A DNA stretch of 64,000 bases from an uncultured Actinomycetota bacterium (GTDB lineage Bacteria; Actinomycetota; Geothermincolia; Geothermincolales; Geothermincolaceae): contig CAZETE010000004.1 of the NCBI GenBank assembly GCA_964515075.1, positions 3,353 to 67,352 on the forward strand, given 5' to 3'. Under the pieces are notes generated by a model. It searched no databases and had not been told where the DNA came from. It saw nothing but the letters and a program-made list of their open reading frames with translations. Below are positions 1 to 48,231 of this stretch, in pieces; the stretch's first letter is position 1, and each line of letters starts with the position of its first letter. A program made the position numbers and the translations under genes.

Positions 1-297
1 CGACTCCTCCTTCAGCCGCCGGAAGCGCGGGCTGTCCAGGATGAGCTGTTCGTCCAGCTGCTGCAGGATGGCCTCCAGCTGGCCGGTGGTGATGATGTCG
101 CCGTAGCGGCGGACGTAGGCGGCCTGGATCTCGCGGAGCGAGCGCCTGCCGTCGCAGAGGGAGGCGATGAAATAGGCCGCGGGCGAGACGGCCGCCACGT
201 CCGGGAAGTAACCCTCCGGGTCGCGCAGGCCGATCATCTCGCGGCCCTGATGGGTCAGGGGGAAGGCCTCCAGCCTGCGCGTCCTGGGGTGCTCCAT
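1..297 (-). CDS. PqqD-family / RiPP-recognition-element (RRE)-like domain protein, N-terminal part only; the ORF runs off the window start
   Basis: The reverse-strand ORF starts at ATG 297..295 and is still open at position 1. Its translation is MEHPRTRRLEAFPLTHQGREMIGLRDPEGYFPDVAAVSPAAYFIASLCDGRRSLREIQAAYVRRYGDIITTGQLEAILQQLDEQLILDSPRFRRLKEES. It contains the PqqD-type signature (L-CDG-RS/T-xxEI ... helical tail). Confidence 0.5.
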   Translation of the reverse strand, partial: MEHPRTRRLEAFPLTHQGREMIGLRDPEGYFPDVAAVSPAAYFIASLCDGRRSLREIQAAYVRRYGDIITTGQLEAILQQLDEQLILDSPRFRRLKEES

Positions 298-310
298 GGG
301 TGGCCGGCCC

Positions 311-583
311 TCACTTCCAGGCGGAGCGCTTCTTGGCTTCCCTCTCCCAGCCGACGTCCAGCGCCAGCCAGGCCTTGGCCCGGATCAGCTCGTCGGTGGC
401 GGGGTCGGCGACCAGGGCCATCAGCGCCTCGATGCCCCGCTGGTCCCCCAGCCGGGTGATGGCCTCGACCACCGCGTAGCGGAGTTCGCGGTCCTCGCTT
501 CCCAGGAGCTCGATGAGCTTGCCCACGTCGCGCTGGGCCTCCAGCTTGCCCACGTCGGGCTTTCCCCCCTTGAACAAGGCCAT
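311..583 (-). CDS. small HEAT-repeat (PBS-lyase-like) protein
   Basis: A 90 aa ORF with HEAT/PBS-lyase-like repeats (...DRELRYAVVEAITRLGDQRGIEALMALVADPATDELIRAKAWLAL...). It sits 14 nt upstream of the RRE-like ORF on the same strand. Confidence 0.5.
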   Translation of the reverse strand: MALFKGGKPDVGKLEAQRDVGKLIELLGSEDRELRYAVVEAITRLGDQRGIEALMALVADPATDELIRAKAWLALDVGWEREAKKRSAWK

Positions 584-700
584 GGCATCACCAGCCGGTC
601 GTCGCTTCGGACACTGCCTCTTCCCGTTTCCTCAGACCTGAATTATAGCACCGCCGAGGGCCCCGACCAACCGGCCGGCGCGGCCCGCCGCCGGGGGCCC

Positions 701-2806
701 TCACGGCCCCCTCACCACTTCCACCATCACGTACCCCCCCTCCACCAGGCGGAGGTTCGCCTCGAGCCCCTCGGCCAGGGGAAAGGATTCGAGGTCCTGG
801 TAGACGGGCGTCTCCTCCCGCCCCTGCCGCGTGCCGCGGACCAGCAGCACCTCGCCGCCCCGTTCCTCGAAATGGAAGGCCGCGCCGCCGGCCAGGGTGA
901 CGGCTTCCGCCGGGTCCCTCAAGCGGAAGGGGGAGGGGCGGCAGAAGACGAGGGTGGTGGCGCCGGGCCCCGCCGCCGCGGCCCCGGCCCCCCCGCCGAG
1001 GACGGGCTCGGCGTACCACGGGCCACCGTCCACGCCCCCCGTCCCGGTGATGAAGGAGCCCTCCCCGCCGGGCAGCGCGCCGACGGCCGGGTAGTTGGGA
1101 GCCAGGAAGTCGTAGACGGGGCGGGAGACGTCCACCGGCACCCACCCCACGCCGTAGAGATACGCCTGATTGAGGTAGCGGTCGAAGGAGAGGGCCGTGC
1201 GGGCCGGGATGCCCGCGGCGCGGCACAGGGCGGTGAAGGCCAGGGCGCGCTCGTAGTCGTCCCCCCCGCTTCCCCCGAGGACCCGCGCAACCGCCGCGCG
1301 CGCGTACTCCTCCCCCGCCGCGCCGGTGAGAGGCGGCGGGGGCAGGGCGCGGCTGGGGCAGGCGGTGAGGTAGAAGGCGCCGTGCCGGGCCAGGCGGAGC
1401 AGGACCGCCAGCATGTCCCCCCGCTCCTCCCCGGGGATGCCCTCCAGCACCGCGGCGATCTCCGGCAGGTCGCCGGGGACGCCGGCCATGGGCAGCAGGT
1501 AGGGCCGGGCCTCTTCCGGGAAGGAGTCCGGGAAGGGATAACGGCCTGCGGGGTCCAGGCGGAAGCCGTCCGAGCGGCGGGCCGCCGCCAGGACCTCCAC
1601 CTCCGTGCGGCCCGAGACCCCCCCGAGGACCAGGTCGAGCCCGTACGGCCCCCGGCGTTCCAGCTCCCAGGACACGCCGGCCGCTCCCGCCCTCACCCGG
1701 TAGTAGAACCATTCCGGCCTCAGGAAATCGGAGGACGGCAGGGAGAGGCGGAGGCCGGCCGGCCGGCCGCTCCCGCCCTCCACCCCGAACGCGGCCCGCG
1801 CCACCAGGCGCGAGGGCTGGTAGACCTGGTCGCCGCTGTAGTGGATGCCCGAGGCGGTCCTGGCGTAGACGGCCCCGCGCGCAGAGGCGCTGACGTGCTC
1901 CACCGGCTCCCCCAGCGAAGCGAGCTCCTCCTCCGTCCCGGCGGCGGGAGAGAGGCGGGTCAGCTTGCCGGAGTTCTTGCCCAGGAGGATGTCCTCCCCG
2001 CCGATGCGGGAGGCGGAGATGACGGGGTCGTCGCTCCGCCTGACCGCGACGAGCTCCCGGCCCTCCAGGCGGTACACGCCCCTGGCCGTCACCAGGTACA
2101 GCCCGCCGGCGGGCGCCTCCACCAGCTCCACCACGCGGAAGTTCTTCTCCCCCGGCACCTCCACGGGCAGCCCCCCGGCCTCTCCCGGCAGCAGGAGCTC
2201 CAGGCGGTTCTCCCACATCTCGCAGAGGAGCCCCCTCGAGGAGCCGGCCAGGCGCACCGGCGTGCCCGAAAGGCCGGCGCCGTCCCCCCAGGCCCTCTCC
2301 CAGCCGTCCCCGGACCGCCGGAAGACACCCCCGTCGCAGCCCGCGTAGACGCCGCCGGAGAGGTCGGCATGGACGGAGACGGCGACGCCCGGCACCGCTT
2401 CGGCGGCGCGTTCCCCCGCCCGGTCCATGCGCTGCAGCCCCCCCTCGCCCGCCGCCAGGTAGACGCATCCGGTCGCGAGGTCCTGCCGTTCTCCCGCGGC
2501 CTCGAGCGCGAAGTCCTCCACGCCGTCGCCGCAAGCCGGCAGGGGGGAGAGGTGGAGGCCGGGGTCGAGGGAGTACATCTCCCGGGAATAGGTCAGCACC
2601 CACAGGACGCCGCGGGCGTCCGCCTCCATCTTCTTGACCTCCAGGCCGGGGGGGAGCTCGAGGAAGGAGAAGGCCGGCCCGGCCTTGCCCGTCCCCCCCG
2701 CGCCGCCCCCGCGGCATCCCGGCGACGCGAGGAGCAGGGCCGCGGCCAGCGCGGCGGCCAGGCGGCTAGCGCGGCGTCTCCCTTCCATGACTCCATGATA
2801 CCCCAC
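701..2806 (-). CDS. lipoprotein with repeat/propeller-like N-terminal half and transglutaminase-like cysteine-protease domain
   Basis: A 701 aa ORF with a signal peptide and lipobox (LLLASPGC). The C-terminal half carries the transglutaminase-like core (..YARAAVARVLGGSGGDDYERALAFTALCRAAGIPARTALSFDRY..). The overlapping long ORFs on the other strand have no recognisable domains. Confidence 0.6.
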   Translation of the reverse strand: MGYHGVMEGRRRASRLAAALAAALLLASPGCRGGGAGGTGKAGPAFSFLELPPGLEVKKMEADARGVLWVLTYSREMYSLDPGLHLSPLPACGDGVEDFALEAAGERQDLATGCVYLAAGEGGLQRMDRAGERAAEAVPGVAVSVHADLSGGVYAGCDGGVFRRSGDGWERAWGDGAGLSGTPVRLAGSSRGLLCEMWENRLELLLPGEAGGLPVEVPGEKNFRVVELVEAPAGGLYLVTARGVYRLEGRELVAVRRSDDPVISASRIGGEDILLGKNSGKLTRLSPAAGTEEELASLGEPVEHVSASARGAVYARTASGIHYSGDQVYQPSRLVARAAFGVEGGSGRPAGLRLSLPSSDFLRPEWFYYRVRAGAAGVSWELERRGPYGLDLVLGGVSGRTEVEVLAAARRSDGFRLDPAGRYPFPDSFPEEARPYLLPMAGVPGDLPEIAAVLEGIPGEERGDMLAVLLRLARHGAFYLTACPSRALPPPPLTGAAGEEYARAAVARVLGGSGGDDYERALAFTALCRAAGIPARTALSFDRYLNQAYLYGVGWVPVDVSRPVYDFLAPNYPAVGALPGGEGSFITGTGGVDGGPWYAEPVLGGGAGAAAAGPGATTLVFCRPSPFRLRDPAEAVTLAGGAAFHFEERGGEVLLVRGTRQGREETPVYQDLESFPLAEGLEANLRLVEGGYVMVEVVRGP

Positions 2807-2870
2807 GCCGGCAGCGAAAAGGCGGCCCTTGCGAGCCGCCTCCGTTCGTGCGCGCCCGGGCGCCCGGGAC

Positions 2871-3275
2871 CTAGAGCGGGTCGGGGTTGCGGAAGCTGGG
2901 CTTGTAGGTGACCCTGCGCATCTTGTTGAAGACCACGTTCATGGAGCGGGAGAAGACGTCGGGCTTGAGCTCCTCCACCATCTTGGTGACGAAACGCTGG
3001 TTCTTGTTGAGCGATTCCGCGATGGCGGCGGGGTCCAGCTCGCCCATGAGCTTGGTCATGAACCCGGGGTTGGCGTTGATGGGGGCGGCCAGGGCCTTGG
3101 GGTCCAGTTCGGGGATGACCTTGCCCATGAACTCCCCGCTGTCGTTGACGATGCCGGCGACGATCTTGGGATCCAGCGTGGACAGCATGCCCTTGACCAT
3201 GCCGGCCAGCAGCTTGCCCATCAGGTTGGTGATGGTGCCGGCGATGGAACCCATCATCTCGAACAGTGCGCTCAT
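2871..3275 (-). CDS. small protein with four ~23-aa tandem repeats (LDPxxxAxxxNxNxxFxxKxxxE); function unknown
   Basis: A 134 aa ORF (MSALFEMMGS...) with internal repeats LDPKIVAGIVNDSGEFMGKVIPE / LDPKALAAPINANPGFMTKLMGE / LDPAAIAESLNKNQRFVTKMVEE / LKPDVFSRSMNVVFNKMRRV. Codon usage is typical of the host. It has a GGGAGGT ribosome-binding site and an AT-rich promoter region immediately upstream. Confidence 0.55.
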   Translation of the reverse strand: MSALFEMMGSIAGTITNLMGKLLAGMVKGMLSTLDPKIVAGIVNDSGEFMGKVIPELDPKALAAPINANPGFMTKLMGELDPAAIAESLNKNQRFVTKMVEELKPDVFSRSMNVVFNKMRRVTYKPSFRNPDPL

Positions 3276-3344
3276 CCTCTACCTCCCTTAGTAGATACCA
3301 ATACTGACCATCCAGTCTTTGCAGCTTCTCTTTGCTGCCATTCC

Positions 3345-3400
3345 ATTATAGTACACTCCGTCGGAAATTCCCACCCCAATTTAGCAGGCATTATGCTTCA
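3345..3400 (-). promoter_or_regulatory. AT-rich promoter region (minus strand) with a -10-like TACTATAAT for the repeat-protein gene
   Basis: The minus-strand sequence ...TTGGGGTGGGAATTTCCGACGGAGTGTACTATAATGG... lies about 70 nt upstream of the ATG. Local GC is far below the genome average. A ribosome-binding site GGGAGGT precedes the ATG. Confidence 0.4.
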
Positions 3401-3528: not shown

Positions 3529-3558
3529 TTGACATCGTACCGGCCTGCGCCCATAATT
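3529..3558 (+). promoter_or_regulatory. sigma70-like promoter (TTGACA-17nt-CATAAT) upstream of the homocysteine-synthesis genes
   Basis: TTGACA at 3529-3534, a 17 nt spacer, then CATAAT at 3552-3557. Confidence 0.45.
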
Positions 3559-3564
3559 GACTGG

Positions 3565-3842
3565 TCCGGGTCGTTGATAAGTGAATATCCGAGCAAAGGC
3601 TGAGAAGGGGAGGAGTAGGTCCGCCGGTTGCGCTACAGAGAGCCGAGCCGAGGTTGAGAATCGGTGCGCGACAACGGGCCGAAGATGGCCCCGGAGCTTC
3701 CCGCCGAAAGGGCGACCGAGTAGGCGAGGACGGACGCCCCCGTCACCACGGGCTTAGGGTATCGCGCCGTAGGCGCCGCACCTGAACGGGACGGTTCTCC
3801 GGAGGGATCCGCCGGCTGGTGCGCCGCCGGTGGGTTTTTCAT
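3565..3842 (+). ncRNA. ~270 nt 5' leader RNA (candidate riboswitch or attenuator, class unassigned) ending in a terminator-like hairpin
   Basis: No credible ORF lies between the promoter at 3529 and the DUF39 start at 3932. A GC-rich hairpin CCGGC-9nt-GCCGG at about 3812-3830 is followed by TGGGTTTTTCATTT. Promoter, structured leader and terminator preceding a sulfur-amino-acid biosynthesis gene is the classic riboswitch architecture. I could not match the SAM-I/S-box consensus convincingly. Confidence 0.35.
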
Positions 3843-3931: not shown

Positions 3932-5119
3932 ATGGCGAAGACGATCGCCGAGATAAACGAGAAGATACGGGCGGGCAGCGTGGTGGTGGTCACCGCCGAG
4001 GAGATCATCGACCTGGTCAAACGCGAAGGCGCCGAGGCCGCGGCGGAGAAGGTGGACGTGGTCACCACCGGCACCTTCGGCCCCATGTGCTCCTCGGGGG
4101 CCTTCATCAACCTGGGCCATTCCAAGCCGCGCATCAAGATCTCCCGGGCCACCCTCAACGGGGTGCCCGCCTACTCCGGCATCGCCGCGGTGGACGTCTA
4201 CATAGGGGCCACCGAGCTGCCCGAGAACGACCCCTTGAACGAGGTCTTCCCGGGCGAGTTCAAGTACGGCGGAGGGCACGTCATCGAGGACCTGGTGGCC
4301 GGGCGCAAGGTCAGGCTGGAGGCCCACTCCTACGGCACCGACTGTTACCCCAACCGCCGCTGGGAGAGGGACCTCACCCTTTCCGAGATGGGCGACGCCT
4401 TCCTCTTCAACCCGCGCAACGGCTACCAGAACTACAACGTGGCGGTGAACCGCTCCGACCGCATCATCTACACCTACATGGGCCTGCTCCGCCCCGAGCT
4501 GGGCAACGCCAACTACTGCTCGGCCGGGCAGCTCAGCCCGCTCCTGAACGACCCCTGCTTCCGCACCATCGGCGTGGGGACGCGCATCTTCCTGGGCGGC
4601 GGCGTGGGCTACGTGGCCTGGAACGGCACCCAGCACAACCCGGAGGTGCCCCGCACCGCCGGGGGCGCGCCGCGCCTGCCCTCGGGGACCCTGTCGGTCC
4701 TGGGCGACCTCAAGGGGATGAGCCCCCGCTGGCTGGTGGGCAACTCCTTCCTGGGCTACGGCGCCACCATGAGCGTGGGCCTGGGCATCCCCATCCCGGT
4801 GCTGGACGCGGAGGTGGCGCGGGCCGCCGCCGTCTCCGACGCGGAGCTGTTCGCCCCGGTGGTGGACTACTCCCTCGACTACCCGCAGGGCACCGGCAAG
4901 CTCCTGGGGGAGGTGAGCTACGCCCAGCTGAAGAGCGGCTCCTTCCGGCTGGAGGGCCGGGAGGTGCTGGCCGCCCCCCTCTCCAGCTACCCGCGGGCCC
5001 GGGAGATCGCCGAGACCTTGAAGGACTGGATAGAGAAGGGCGGGTTCCTGCTGGGCGAGCCGGCGCAGCTGCTGCCCTGCCCCGCCCGGGACGGGACCGC
5101 GCCCGCAGGAGGTGAATGA
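3932..5119 (+). CDS. DUF39 (COG1900) homocysteine-biosynthesis enzyme (L-aspartate-semialdehyde sulfurtransferase, MA1821-like)
   Basis: A 395 aa ORF (MAKTIAEINEKIRAGSVVVVTAEEIIDLVK...) typical of the DUF39 family. It is directly followed by, and overlaps by 4 nt, the gene for its known NIL-ferredoxin partner. Confidence 0.8.
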   Translation: MAKTIAEINEKIRAGSVVVVTAEEIIDLVKREGAEAAAEKVDVVTTGTFGPMCSSGAFINLGHSKPRIKISRATLNGVPAYSGIAAVDVYIGATELPENDPLNEVFPGEFKYGGGHVIEDLVAGRKVRLEAHSYGTDCYPNRRWERDLTLSEMGDAFLFNPRNGYQNYNVAVNRSDRIIYTYMGLLRPELGNANYCSAGQLSPLLNDPCFRTIGVGTRIFLGGGVGYVAWNGTQHNPEVPRTAGGAPRLPSGTLSVLGDLKGMSPRWLVGNSFLGYGATMSVGLGIPIPVLDAEVARAAAVSDAELFAPVVDYSLDYPQGTGKLLGEVSYAQLKSGSFRLEGREVLAAPLSSYPRAREIAETLKDWIEKGGFLLGEPAQLLPCPARDGTAPAGGE

Positions 5120-5526
5120 CCGTGCATCGCAAGGTGGTTCTGCATTTCCCCCACGAGCAGGTGGACAAGCCCATCGTCAGCCGCCTGGTCAAGGACTTCG
5201 ACATGGACTTCAACATCCTCAAGGCCCAGATAACCCCGCGGGAGGAGGGCATCCTGGTGCTGGACCTCATCGGGCCGGAGGAGAACTTCAACCGCAGCAT
5301 CCGCTACCTGGAGGAGCAGCGGGTGGTCATCCAGCCCCTGTCGCAGGACATCCGGCGGAACGATGAGCGCTGCACCCACTGCGGCGCCTGCACGGGCGTC
5401 TGCCCCTCCCGGGCGCTCTTCATCGACAGGAAGAGCATGGAGGTCCGCTTCGACGAGGAGGAGTGCGTGGCCTGCGAGCTGTGCGTGCGCGTCTGCCCGT
5501 CGCGGGCCATGGAGGTCCACTACTGA
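5116..5526 (+). CDS. NIL-domain / 2x[4Fe-4S] ferredoxin partner of the DUF39 enzyme (MA1822-like)
   Basis: A 136 aa ORF with an N-terminal NIL domain and two CxxCxxCxxxCP motifs (CTHCGACTGVCP, CVACELCVRVCP). Confidence 0.8.
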   Translation: MTVHRKVVLHFPHEQVDKPIVSRLVKDFDMDFNILKAQITPREEGILVLDLIGPEENFNRSIRYLEEQRVVIQPLSQDIRRNDERCTHCGACTGVCPSRALFIDRKSMEVRFDEEECVACELCVRVCPSRAMEVHY

Positions 5527-45557: not shown

Positions 45558-46220
45558 ATGACCGTCATGAAAAGGCTCTATCGTGCCGGGGGCGGCGCGG
45601 TCCTCGCGGCGCTCTCGTTGCTGGCAATCGTGTATATGGCGGGCTGCGGGTCGCCCCAGGCGCGGCCGGACATGGGGACGGAGACCGTCGACCCGCAGGT
45701 GGCGGCGGACTCCCTCTCCGTGAGGCTCAACGACCTGGAGGGCAAGCAGCAACAGCTGGAGCAGCGCATCCACGAACTGGTCAACCAGCGGCGGGCCGAG
45801 AACGGCCTGGCCGAGATGGCCTGGGAGGAGCGCCTGGCGGAGATCGCCCGCTACCACAGCCGGGACATGGCCGAGCGCTGCTACTTCGACCACCTGAGCC
45901 CGGAGGGCGAGGACTTCACGGCCCGCTACGCCATGTTCGGGTACGACGCCGGCAACCGGGTGGGCGACGTGGTCTACCGCGGGGCGGAGAACCTCTTCCT
46001 CAACAGCCTCTACAGGTCCTACACCTACATCAAGGACACCGGCGAGGTGGTGAAGTACGACTTCAGCACCCTCGAGGAGATCGCCCTGAGCACGGTGGAC
46101 GGGTGGATGGAGAGCGAGGGCCACCGGGAGAACCTGCTCATGCCCCACTTCATCAAGGAGGGCGTCGGCGTGGTCTTTGCCCGCGACGGCAGGATCTACA
46201 TCTCCCAGAACTTCAACTGA
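45558..46220 (+). CDS. CAP/SCP/PR-1-like domain lipoprotein
   Basis: A signal peptide and lipobox (LLAIVYMAGC), then the CAP domain (..ELVNQRRAENGLAEMAWEERLAEIARYHSRDMAERCYFDHLSPEG...HRENLL..). Confidence 0.72.
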   Translation: MTVMKRLYRAGGGAVLAALSLLAIVYMAGCGSPQARPDMGTETVDPQVAADSLSVRLNDLEGKQQQLEQRIHELVNQRRAENGLAEMAWEERLAEIARYHSRDMAERCYFDHLSPEGEDFTARYAMFGYDAGNRVGDVVYRGAENLFLNSLYRSYTYIKDTGEVVKYDFSTLEEIALSTVDGWMESEGHRENLLMPHFIKEGVGVVFARDGRIYISQNFN

Positions 46221-46270
46221 GCCCCTGACCGCGCCGGCGCCGGCACAACGGCCCGCCCGGCCCGCAAGTC

Positions 46271-46298
46271 GCAGGTTCGAGTCCTGCCAGGCGTGCCA
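46271..46298 (+). other. tRNA 3'-end-like fragment (T-arm GCAGG-TTCGAGT-CCTGC, acceptor strand, discriminator, CCA); putative integration-site remnant
   Basis: gcaggttcgagtcctgccaggcgtgcca reproduces the canonical T-stem/loop and 3' acceptor strand ending in CCA. I could not fold a matching 5' half upstream. GC content collapses immediately downstream. Confidence 0.4.
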
Positions 46299-46303
46299 GC
46301 AAT

Positions 46304-47242
46304 TCAAGCGGATGTGCGAGTATCCGCTTTTTCTTTTACATATGCCCTTGCATCGAAACTGAGTCGTATCCTGTAGTGCATGATGGTGACTATTGTCATC
46401 ACTCCGATTTGTGGAATCACAAACATCAGCACAGCAACGGGAATCGACACAACATCCGCCCAAGGATAGACAATCACGAAGGGCAAGCTGATCAGTGCAG
46501 TAATCACACAGACAAGAACAGCATCTTTCTTAAAGCTTATCCGCCTCTCTTTCTTCTTGCGATAGAAATAGTCGGCCAGCGCAACGAGGGAAACGAAGGC
46601 AAGGTAAACTACGACTGCCAATGGATACTCATAAGGCTTAGGCTTATCTAATGATTTGAAATATTCGTCCATTCTTTTATCTTCTTTTTCCAATATATAT
46701 GCCCCAAGACTATCTGCCCAATCAGCCAACTCGTCTTTCCCTTGTTGCTTATAGATTTGACTCAGCAAACCATATCCAGCAGCTTGGCTTGGCTGTCCGT
46801 ATTCAAATGCCAATGCCCTATAAGCAAGGGATTCAGCCTCGTTCAACATCCCATAATCAAGATAGGACATGGCTATAGCAATTAAAGTCGTAAAATCATA
46901 GGGGTTTGCATCAAACGCTTGCTGGAGAATCTCCGATACTCTCTCCCTGTTTCCGATTGAATTGTAGACATCGGCTAGACTTCTATAATCCCAAACAGAG
47001 AAGGACTCCGGGTCAAGCGCATAAGCTTTTTCATAGAGGCTTATAGCTTCTCTTGCCTCTTCTTGGGTAATCGAGTCCAAGCCCTTCTTGGTTATTGAAT
47101 CTGCTTGATCGATCAGCTTCTGTGCTTCGTCTTTCGATTGATCCTGTTGCGCCAATACTCCAACATTTGAGGTGGCCATAGCGGTGCACAGCAAAATAGA
47201 CCCAACGGTCAAGGCCTTCTTCCAAATGCCAAATGCATTCAT
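46304..47242 (-). CDS. secreted/membrane TPR-repeat protein (low-GC, foreign)
   Basis: The start is taken at MNAFGIWKKALTVGSILLCTAMA (signal peptide). It has TPR-like repeats and two C-terminal transmembrane helices. Confidence 0.55.
   Translation of the reverse strand: MNAFGIWKKALTVGSILLCTAMATSNVGVLAQQDQSKDEAQKLIDQADSITKKGLDSITQEEAREAISLYEKAYALDPESFSVWDYRSLADVYNSIGNRERVSEILQQAFDANPYDFTTLIAIAMSYLDYGMLNEAESLAYRALAFEYGQPSQAAGYGLLSQIYKQQGKDELADWADSLGAYILEKEDKRMDEYFKSLDKPKPYEYPLAVVVYLAFVSLVALADYFYRKKKERRISFKKDAVLVCVITALISLPFVIVYPWADVVSIPVAVLMFVIPQIGVMTIVTIMHYRIRLSFDARAYVKEKADTRTSA
46308..46337 (+). terminator. intrinsic terminator GCGGAT-GTGCGAGT-ATCCGC TTTTTCTTTT (for the CAP-domain gene)
   Basis: A 6-bp stem, an 8-nt loop and a 10-nt T-rich run. 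It lies within the 3' end of the convergent TPR gene. Confidence 0.5.
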
Positions 47243-47549
47243 ACTTAGCCTGCTCAGTTTATCGTCCTTTCTTCCCACAAAGCGAATGCCCCCTTTTCGC
47301 AAGTATTCTACCATCCATCAAGCCAGCATTGCTTTTCTACTCATCCCCACCCTCAGCTGGCGATACCCAGTATGGGGATACTGTAATCCTGTTCTGCGTT
47401 CATCAGTCTGGTTCGAACTTCGTCCACAGTGGGGTGCCAAATACAATAGTAAATCAGAGGGTATTACCTTCGTCCTGCTCTTAATGGGCCATGTTCCTTA
47501 TTAATTACCGTGCGATTTGTGTGCTACATGGTCACGCGCAAGGCGAGCC

Positions 47550-47921
47550 TCAGTCGTTTATTGCGTCCAACGCCCGTTGGCGTATCCTGTCTCGCTCTAT
47601 CACGGTGAACATCCCGGTCAAGGTAATGCTCTGCTCTCGAAGTATGCCTGACAAGATCTCTCCGGCTTCGTCCGGAGAAGCCGGAGCGAAGCGGAAGTAG
47701 ACGATGCCGTTGACATTGCGCGCCTTGTGCCGGAAGATCAGCTCTCCGTAATCACGGTCAAAGGTCAGGATGATACGATCCTCTTCGATTGCCCGTTCGA
47801 GCACTTGCCGGTCTGTCGCGCCAGGCATTTCGTCAGCGATACGAAGGACGTCATGACCACTCTCCTCGAGCAGCCTGGTACTTGACCGGGGAATGTTTTC
47901 GTTGGCAAGGAAGTCCATCAC
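47550..47921 (-). CDS. DUF5615 (COG4634) PIN-like putative toxin
   Basis: MMDFLANENIPRSSTRLLEESGHDVL...ILTFDRDYGELIF... is typical of DUF5615. Confidence 0.7.
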   Translation of the reverse strand: MMDFLANENIPRSSTRLLEESGHDVLRIADEMPGATDRQVLERAIEEDRIILTFDRDYGELIFRHKARNVNGIVYFRFAPASPDEAGEILSGILREQSITLTGMFTVIERDRIRQRALDAIND

Positions 47922-48163
47922 ACGGCTTTGGAGTCAAGAGGATAAAGGGATTCCTCACGCATGCATTCGGTCGCGAAGGCGAATATCGCCCGGATGTTCT
48001 CGGCAATAAGATTGGGGTACTCCTCAAGCACCCTGCTTTCCGTCCAGCCCTCGGCGAACAGGCCCAGGATAAATTCGACTGAGAGCCGGGTTCCTTTGAC
48101 CACGGGCTTGCCCATCAATACATCGGGATCAGAGGTAATAGTTTTTCTCCAATCGACTTCCAT
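47918..48163 (-). CDS. DUF433 (COG2442) putative antitoxin
   Basis: ..VLMGKPVVKGTRLSVEFILGLFAEGWTESRVLEEYPNLIAENIRAIFAFA.. Its stop overlaps the DUF5615 start (ATGA). Confidence 0.7.
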   Translation of the reverse strand: MEVDWRKTITSDPDVLMGKPVVKGTRLSVEFILGLFAEGWTESRVLEEYPNLIAENIRAIFAFATECMREESLYPLDSKAV

Positions 48164-48231
48164 CACGACTCCTTCCTTACAGGTATAGCGTACCACAAAG
48201 AAAAGACGGGGTCAGTCCGGGGTCCCGGGGC

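Follow-up and report, generated by a model that had tools for sequence, protein, structure and literature searches.

Four genes lie close together on the minus strand at one edge of a contig from an uncultured Actinomycetota bacterium of the Geothermincolaceae, and the question they raise is whether they work together as one operon and, if so, on what. The stretch analysed here, called the window throughout, comprises 64,000 nucleotides (nt) of contig CAZETE010000004.1 (assembly GCA_964515075.1). A reading made from the sequence alone (the sequence-only reading) had taken the four genes as a single operon continuing beyond position 1. It saw in the neighbourhood of a PqqD-type domain and a transglutaminase-like domain the hallmark pair of systems that mature peptides made by the ribosome and modified after translation (RiPPs), such as lasso peptides. 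In our analysis the region is rather probably made up of three adjacent co-oriented transcription units and is not one RiPP operon, and gene 4 would encode a Memo-type metalloenzyme with partners; this is our best explanation of the whole.

The four open reading frames (ORFs), numbered here in the direction of transcription, were recovered at the same coordinates as before, with successive gaps of 64, 117 and 13 nt (Table 1). The G+C content of their third codon positions (GC3) is 0.94–0.96 in all four, as for real genes of a genome with ~72% GC, and their description as uncharacterised stands. Looking up the exact sequence of the gene 3 protein gave six contigs from metagenomes. Four of these (L002–L005; labels of the type L002 denote related loci fetched for comparison) are 100% identical to the window over 1377–2634 nt, and hence can be used as its extension. 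On these contigs gene 4 is complete with 407 amino acids (aa), about 927 nt of it lying past position 1, and a convergent 545-aa SBP_bac_5 (OppA-like) gene begins 20 nt past its stop codon; thus, the cluster ends with gene 4. What continues past position 1 is therefore gene 4 and not a longer operon. The leftward search that the sequence-only reading had proposed found no cyclase of the asparagine-synthetase-like type, radical S-adenosylmethionine (SAM) enzyme, ATP-grasp protein, ATP-binding cassette (ABC) exporter or short precursor ORF after gene 4 in this extension.

The part of gene 4 that lies outside the window is a Memo domain. Residues 111–403 match PF01875 with 106.8 bits against a cut-off of 27 (E 1.4e-30), covering profile positions 2–268 of 269, and the family profile of gene 4 finds MEMO1 chains (3BCZ, 7KQ8) in the PDB at E 5e-24. 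In alignment with human MEMO1, gene 4 shows conserved motifs, namely APH, (G)TCH, EHSIE, (D)LAH as well as (V)CG; of these, APH, TCH, LAH and VCG stand opposite APH, PSH, CH and ICG of MEMO1. In a 65-member family alignment APH, TCH, EHS, LAH and VCG are at least 90% conserved. The aligned His/His/His/Cys are presumably the metal- and active-site residues. The C-terminal ~300 aa of gene 4 thus belong to the same family as MEMO1 and keep these motifs, whereas the gene is bacterial, carries an extra N-terminal domain of ~100 aa with the RRE/PqqD fold (RRE, RiPP recognition element) and has a HEAT mini-protein as partner gene in this lineage. The Memo family extends in conserved form from bacteria to humans, where MEMO1 is involved in cell motility and metal homeostasis, and there is no agreement on the biochemical reaction of its proteins. 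Proteins with this added N-terminal domain, the long form of Memo, are widespread: a word-indexed search gave 436 matches at E≤1e-5, with 57–76% identity in metagenome-assembled genomes (MAGs) of Actinomycetota/Geothermincolia and ~40% in MAGs of Methylomirabilia and Binataceae.

The N-terminal domain of gene 4 is the part that had been called PqqD-like. Its sequence score against the PqqD profile is 21.2 bits, just short of the cut-off of 23.4. An AlphaFold2 model of the domain (99 residues, 65-sequence alignment) has a predicted local distance difference test score (pLDDT) of 94.9 and the order strand-strand-strand-helix-helix-helix; Foldseek E-values for this model were non-significant. Judged by the model, the RRE/PqqD-like fold appears structurally right. 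Of the earlier domain calls, those of Transglut_core and HEAT_2 exceeded their cut-offs, and that of PqqD stood by its modelled fold and not by its sequence score. Origin as the PqqD of a pyrroloquinoline quinone (PQQ) operon was considered and rejected: with TIGR03859 the score is 20.3 bits where 46 would be required, the ORF runs into the Memo domain and there are no pqq genes beside it.

In addition, the N-domain motifs LRDP, DG..S..DIQ and LD..L.LDS..F are nearly invariant across phyla. Between clades the N-domain is 38% and the catalytic domain 39% identical, from which the N-domain appears highly conserved across phyla, unlike typical RREs. It also differs from the RREs of PqqD, TfuB1/TbiB1, LynD, NisB, MibB, MccB and TigE in scoring below the curated cut-offs and in its fusion to Memo, and no precursor, RiPP tailoring or export genes lie by gene 4. 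Fusions of RRE and Memo are listed by the authors of RRE-Finder as predicted and uncharacterised, and as 'unprecedented in RiPPs' (PMC12710340).

Partners of gene 4 are suggested by comparison with related loci, in which the four proteins were searched by tblastn in loci fetched via relatives of gene 1 and of Memo. In clade A (the window, L011, L007/L023 and L012) a divergent HcyBio gene is followed by gene 1, gene 2, the HEAT gene and Memo. In clade B (L008/L009/L017, L013–L016, L018–L020 and L022, including Ca. Solincola MAGs) the order is a divergent glutaredoxin gene, gene 1, an acetate-CoA-ligase-alpha-like gene, the HEAT gene, Memo and an EntS-like gene of the major facilitator superfamily (MFS). 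The HEAT gene lies directly upstream of Memo in every Geothermincolia-type locus having the region, except L041, and the spacing between the two is 13–35 nt across the class. This adjacency, together with a gene 1 located 2–2.5 kb upstream on the same strand, was found in ~13 assemblies with three arrangements of the flanking and middle genes. Gene 1 homologues with identities between 87% and 30% all keep this place upstream of Memo, although the intervening gene is swapped. At L041, which has the 30% identical homologue and no HEAT gene, the gene 1 homologue, an acyl-CoA-synthetase (ACS)-alpha-like gene and Memo follow each other with gaps of 0–5 nt. Thus, by gene order, HEAT–Memo and gene 1–Memo appear to be the conserved pairs, and gene 2 would be a recent replacement in the clade of the window.

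The slot of gene 2 is occupied in most relatives by a 465-aa acetate-CoA-ligase-alpha-like gene without the beta/ATP-grasp part (L008 6240–10491; L041 6001–9051). An EntS-like MFS efflux gene stands 3′ of Memo in many relatives, and the lineage of the window has neither the ligase-like nor the MFS gene at this locus. An orthologue of the ACS-alpha-like gene elsewhere in the window was looked for and rejected, since only paralogues of 34–35% identity are present.

Gene 3 itself matches HEAT_2 (PF13646) with 33.9 bits against a cut-off of 27.7 (E 3.9e-8). It belongs to this family of PBS-lyase-type proteins, yet has only 90 aa, roughly two repeats, and no lyase context. A GAGGG Shine–Dalgarno sequence in the 13-nt gap to gene 4 overlaps the stop codon of gene 3, which suggests translational coupling of the two genes.

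The second half of the presumed hallmark pair is gene 2. Transglut_core (PF01841) scores 29.2 bits in it, against a cut-off of 23, at residues 505–559 (nt 1130–1294), and the match spans only profile positions 42–107 of 108. In alignment with PDB segments retrieved by consensus peptide (3isr; 6g49, TgpA; 2f4m, PNGase), the column of the catalytic Cys is occupied by Asp517 in gene 2. There is no His between Arg536 and Asp559, so that only Asp559 is kept of the triad. The homologue at L007 has the same pattern with Asp at the Cys column, and Cys528, the sole other Cys of the core, aligns with a Cys of 3isr outside the catalytic column. A PDB sequence search with gene 2 gave no match, including none to a transglutaminase, and the N-terminal ~480 aa matched no known family and no PDB sequence. 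Homologues are few: three among 5.8 billion proteins in the word-indexed search, in addition to the copies at L007 and L011.

The N-terminus of gene 2, MEGRRRASRLAAALAAALLLASPGC, looks like an export signal by eye, in that its n-region is charged and a hydrophobic stretch and a Cys are present. The start at MEGRRR (ATG 2788) was also chosen by the gene callers of the source databases (P0122, P0123). Measured against the lipobox [LVI][ASTVI][GAS]C, ...LLLASPGC is off consensus with Pro at −2 and Ser at −3, and the L007 homologue reads LAPMGC. Of the call as a transglutaminase lipoprotein, the core and the signal-peptide-like N-terminus were supported, and the lipoprotein nature is only plausible, the lipobox being non-canonical. 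Because the Cys-His part of the triad is lost, gene 2 would be a pseudo-enzyme, a clade-specific exported binding or structural protein and not a cysteine protease. Like lasso B2 and bacterial transglutaminase-like proteases (PF01841; 3ISR, TgpA 6G49), it matches the profile over its C-terminal two-thirds, with the GIPAR helix and also the final Asp. In contrast to these proteases, it has ~700 aa, an exchanged Cys and no catalytic His, a large N-terminal region that matches no family and homologues only among its nearest relatives. The sequence-only reading had itself doubted that gene 2 was a cytoplasmic B2 protease, and that doubt was well placed.

These data bear directly on the proposal of an operon for the maturation of a lasso-like peptide or another RiPP, where a PqqD-type RRE and a transglutaminase-like protease would process a precursor with the help of further genes to the left. 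By its model, the N-domain of gene 4 does have the RRE fold, Transglut_core in gene 2 exceeds the Pfam cut-off, and the genes are co-oriented and close together. However, this RRE-fold domain forms the N-terminal part of a Memo protein of 407 aa; it is not a B1 protein, and no B2 protease is fused to it. Gene 2 lacks both catalytic Cys and His, begins like an exported protein and is absent in most relatives that keep the other genes. The leftward extension holds only the rest of gene 4 and a convergent transporter gene, and none of 84 long-form Memo loci has RiPP-type neighbours. Upstream of gene 1 the divergent T-box/homocysteine operon takes up the space, and the related loci compared above likewise contained neither a lasso cyclase or other class-defining enzyme nor a precursor gene. 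The proposal fails because a complete protease triad, a cyclase and a precursor are all missing at this locus, and we consider it highly improbable.

Transcription signals predicted in the region also argue for separate units. Exact TATAAT occurs 13 times in the 64-kb window against 0.83 expected from shuffles (~15-fold), and at least 8 of the occurrences sit 38–116 nt upstream of a co-oriented ORF; hence, it is a useful promoter marker in this high-GC genome. The −10 box ahead of gene 1 had been noticed before and was found again; its promoter motif GTGTACTATAAT is kept in L011 and L007, together with the untranslated region (UTR) and Shine–Dalgarno sequence of gene 1. It is not the only TATAAT-containing promoter region here, as had been claimed, since gene 3 is preceded by another exact TATAAT, extended by a TGn. 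This element, TGCTATAAT, is identical at the same place in L011 and reads TGGTAAAAT in L007.

Behind gene 1, a terminator-like hairpin with U-tract occurs at the same site in the window, L007, L011 and L008, the stem of L008 differing in sequence; a consensus terminator scanner missed it in the window with its T run of only 4. Upstream of gene 2, the −10-like box stands at the same distance from the start as TATCAT in L011 and as TATGAT in L007, which suggests a promoter of its own giving a leaderless mRNA. Leaderless mRNAs are common in Actinobacteria. Because of the hairpin after gene 1, the −10-like box before gene 2 and TGCTATAAT before gene 3, there are probably three transcription units: gene 1, gene 2, and genes 3 and 4 together. 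The single transcript from one promoter that the sequence-only reading expected is not what these signals predict. It had named separate transcripts, or an RRE-like ORF belonging to another kind of system, as telling against itself; the RRE-like ORF is now part of a Memo protein and separate transcripts are likely, which largely covers both.

Table 1. Genes and predicted signals of the locus, in window coordinates
Feature	Position	Strand	Description
Gene 1	2871–3275	−	ORF, 134 aa, rich in Met, Lys and Asn
Gene 1 −10 box, TATAAT	3345–3350	−	69 nt before gene 1; GC of this stretch 52%
Gene 1 5′ UTR hairpin, GCAGC...GCTGC	3321–3338	−	Small; 5′ UTR of 69 nt
Gene 1 Shine–Dalgarno sequence, AAGGGAGGT	3281–3289	−	Strong
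Terminator-like hairpin after gene 1 stop	~2815–2842	−	10-bp GC-rich stem, GCAA-type loop, then UUUU
Gene 2	701–2806	−	ORF, 701 aa from GTG or 695 aa from ATG at 2788
−10-like box, TATCAT	2795–2800	−	6 nt before ATG 2788 of gene 2
Extended −10, TGCTATAAT (TGnTATAAT)	642–650 (TATAAT 642–647)	−	58 nt before gene 3; TATAAT preceded by TGC
Gene 3	311–583	−	ORF, 90 aa, HEAT-repeat mini-protein (PBS-lyase type)
Gene 4, first 99 codons	1–297	−	RRE/PqqD-fold domain; other 308 codons (Memo domain) past window edge
Divergent promoter, TTGACA-17-CATAAT	3529–3557	+	Shares AT-rich intergenic region with gene 1 promoter
T-box leader, RF00230	3593–3762	+	68.1 bits, E 1.2e-13, below gathering score of 93
Terminator-like hairpin	3815–3839	+	Ahead of homocysteine-synthesis genes

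The explanation as a Memo-type metalloenzyme with partners in separate units has to be weighed against several observations that speak in the other direction. The promoters and terminators are sequence predictions, and in the window no more than four U follow the gene 1 hairpin, so that it could leak and read-through into genes 2–4 is possible. The linkage of gene 1 and Memo was seen in one actinobacterial class only, where shared ancestry could explain part of it. L021, which has a 40% identical homologue of gene 1, and two gene-1-like genes of 26–28% identity have no Memo nearby. Outside the class, long-form Memo stands alone in varied contexts, with neither HEAT gene nor gene 1 (L010, L036–L038). 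When the neighbours of the 84 long-form Memo loci were clustered, no family occurred in more than 14 loci, and 44 of 71 loci had no co-directional upstream gene within 150 nt of Memo. Moreover, a literature search for the biochemistry of bacterial Memo or AmmeMemoRadiSam proteins found nothing mechanistic. Given the solitary position of long-form Memo outside the class, any substrate would usually be encoded elsewhere, or the RRE-fold domain may have a non-peptide role such as dimerisation.

The latter leads to the view that the four genes are functionally unrelated neighbours, with an RRE-fold domain that serves dimerisation or regulation and not peptide recruitment. The predicted separate promoters and terminator, the exchange of gene 2 for another gene in relatives and the solitary position of long-form Memo in most lineages are all consistent with it, and RRE-like domains also occur in protein lysine methyltransferases. 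However, the tight class-wide HEAT–Memo spacing and the packing of gene 1 homologue, ACS-alpha-like gene and Memo at L041 speak against it, and a dimer interface would explain the near-invariant surface motifs of the N-domain no better than a conserved ligand. We regard this view as rather unlikely, though with an appreciable chance of being right.

Another possibility is an AmmeMemoRadiSam system in dispersed form, to which gene 4 would contribute the B component, with AMMECR1 and radical SAM proteins encoded elsewhere in the genome and the neighbours of gene 4 irrelevant. TIGR04336, 'AmmeMemoRadiSam system protein B', scores 85 bits on gene 4 against a cut-off of 26, and homologues of gene 4 carry this name in source databases; the cut-off is very low and the model spans the Memo domain only. 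In comparison with this system protein, gene 4 is a long form with an added N-domain, and the three-gene context is absent from the window and the inspected loci, except possibly L082. There, an ORF of 478 aa with the AMMECR1 motif RGCIG lies directly upstream of Memo (L082 3059–4495), the only such case among the 84 loci. No AMMECR1 or Radical_SAM Pfam match was found among the called neighbours in the inspected loci, and at none of the 84 loci does an ORF carry a radical-SAM-type CxxxCxxC within the first 150 residues. In the window, a crude scan for motifs gave no ORF with RGCIG and no convincing radical SAM ORF; its four CxxxCxxC matches did not look like radical SAM genes. Going by the window and the inspected loci, such a dispersed system is improbable here.

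We therefore return to the Memo-type metalloenzyme with partners, for which a peptide- or protein-directed enzyme is the most likely mechanism. Gene 4 would be a metal-dependent (Fe or Cu) enzyme of the Memo type, whose RRE-fold domain may bind a protein or peptide substrate by an extended segment and keep this segment close to the metal centre. The HEAT protein of gene 3 would act as adaptor or partner of gene 4 in this lineage. Gene 1, as the conserved upstream neighbour, would be the best candidate for a further partner or a substrate; with its consensus −10, strong Shine–Dalgarno sequence and own terminator it may form a strongly expressed monocistronic unit. Gene 2 would be a late replacement of the acyl-CoA-synthetase-alpha-like gene, probably unrelated in function. 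A more specific form of this proposal is that the gene 1 or HEAT protein is the physiological substrate or partner of the RRE–Memo protein. The RRE domain would dock a segment such as the gene 1 tail, FNKMRKxTY(K/R)P, and the His/His/Cys centre would modify it. We hold this specific form to be unlikely as it stands.

Another variant would make the locus a new RRE-dependent cassette for peptide or protein modification, composed of gene 1, (the ACS-alpha-like gene), (the HEAT gene), RRE-Memo and (the MFS exporter gene), from which the lineage of the window has lost ligase and exporter. In this variant, the gene 1 protein is the substrate, is docked via its tail or its N-terminal helix and is oxidatively modified at the Memo metal centre. 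The persistence of gene 1 upstream of Memo through three rearrangements, with genes at L041 abutting or 5 nt apart, is in its favour. So are the layout of strong promoter, terminator-like hairpin and enzyme genes, which resembles that of a precursor gene, the EntS-like efflux gene 3′ of Memo in many relatives and the statement that RRE–Memo fusions are without precedent in RiPPs. However, gene 1 encodes a folded helical-repeat protein with giant membrane-anchored paralogues, which does not resemble a peptide of leader and core. Memo is not found beside the gene 1 homologue of L021 or the most distant gene-1-like genes, the majority of long-form Memo genes lack a gene 1 in their vicinity, and a linkage confined to one class may reflect phylogenetic inertia. 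The cassette, too, seems doubtful, and we give it only a small chance.

The gene 1 protein starts with a long N-terminal helix, followed by four 23-aa helical-hairpin repeats with the motif LDPxxxAxxxNxNxxFxxKxxxE and by a conserved C-terminal tail, ...VVFNKMRRVTYKP. The repeat had been recognised from the sequence alone, and it withstood a shuffling control, the observed sum-of-pairs score not being equalled in any of 20000 shuffles; units 1–3 share 8–11 of 23 residues, and unit 4 is degenerate. No Pfam or NCBIfam family matched the protein. Its structural model is a stack of helical hairpins of only moderate confidence (pLDDT 64.5). Such a stack is likewise found in alpha-solenoid repeat proteins (HEAT/ARM-like; DP repeats of the STI1/XPC-binding type), whereas the 23-aa period and the LDP...N.N..F motif of gene 1 fit no curated family. 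Thus, gene 1 probably encodes a small alpha-solenoid of four 23-residue hairpins, as modelled, and would represent an undescribed repeat family that has expanded in this lineage.

The word-indexed homologue search with gene 1 gave a single match, and an exhaustive HMMER search gave 84 representatives at E≤1e-3. The family comprises small orthologues of 125–139 aa and giant paralogues of 440–1000+ aa, the latter with 7–12 matched stretches and an N-terminal transmembrane helix. In Geothermincolia MAGs (L024–L035), giant genes made up of the 23-aa repeat of gene 1, here LDPxxLAxxxNxNxxFxxxL, form tandem arrays of 3–4 (e.g. L026 7256–13480; L031 10001–18193). No Pfam family covered the repeat of these large paralogues, and the matches to XPC-binding/STI1, MgtE_N and FliG were all sub-threshold. 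A horizontal origin of gene 1 was considered for its lower GC (62%) and rejected, because its GC3 of 0.96 is the same as that of its neighbours; the low GC is due to amino-acid composition. At L007 (4952–5369), a frameshift splits the gene 1 orthologue into ORFs of 88 and 38 aa, which may be an assembly error or a pseudogene.

Our results can help to define where the biochemistry of Memo proteins may be approached. Long-form Memo is already annotated and widespread, and on present evidence the locus is a lead for Memo biochemistry, not a new kind of system. Widespread bacterial Memo proteins with an RRE-fold domain and few conserved neighbours provide concrete candidates for binding and modification assays, which in this class are the HEAT mini-protein, the gene 1 repeat protein, the ACS-alpha-like protein and the MFS exporter. 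If the gene 1 or HEAT protein were the substrate, a Memo-family protein would for the first time have a substrate assigned to it, which would also mean a new RRE-guided enzyme class that acts on a protein and not on a classical RiPP precursor. For genome-mining pipelines, it is relevant that a PqqD match beside a transglutaminase match is not a RiPP signature here. In addition, gene 1 may mark an undescribed family of 23-residue helical repeats with giant paralogues in Geothermincolia.

On the other side of gene 1 lies a divergent operon with a T-box leader and homocysteine-synthesis genes. At the gathering threshold Rfam, like ARAGORN, found nothing in the whole window, and the T-box appeared only in an E-value search. 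Its specifier loop, GAA-G-AUG-G, is probably Met-specific by eye, and downstream of it (3932–5526, plus strand) are a COG1900/HcyBio homocysteine-synthesis gene and a gene for a NIL plus 4Fe-4S ferredoxin protein; the T-box unit is kept in L007 and L011.

Farther along the window, a low-GC island at ~46200–48230 (43–55% GC in a ~72% GC genome) was probably acquired horizontally. It is preceded by a gene for a CAP/SCP-like secreted protein and holds genes on the minus strand for a TPR-like membrane protein (46304–47314) and a small PIN/DUF5615-like ORF (47550–47921).

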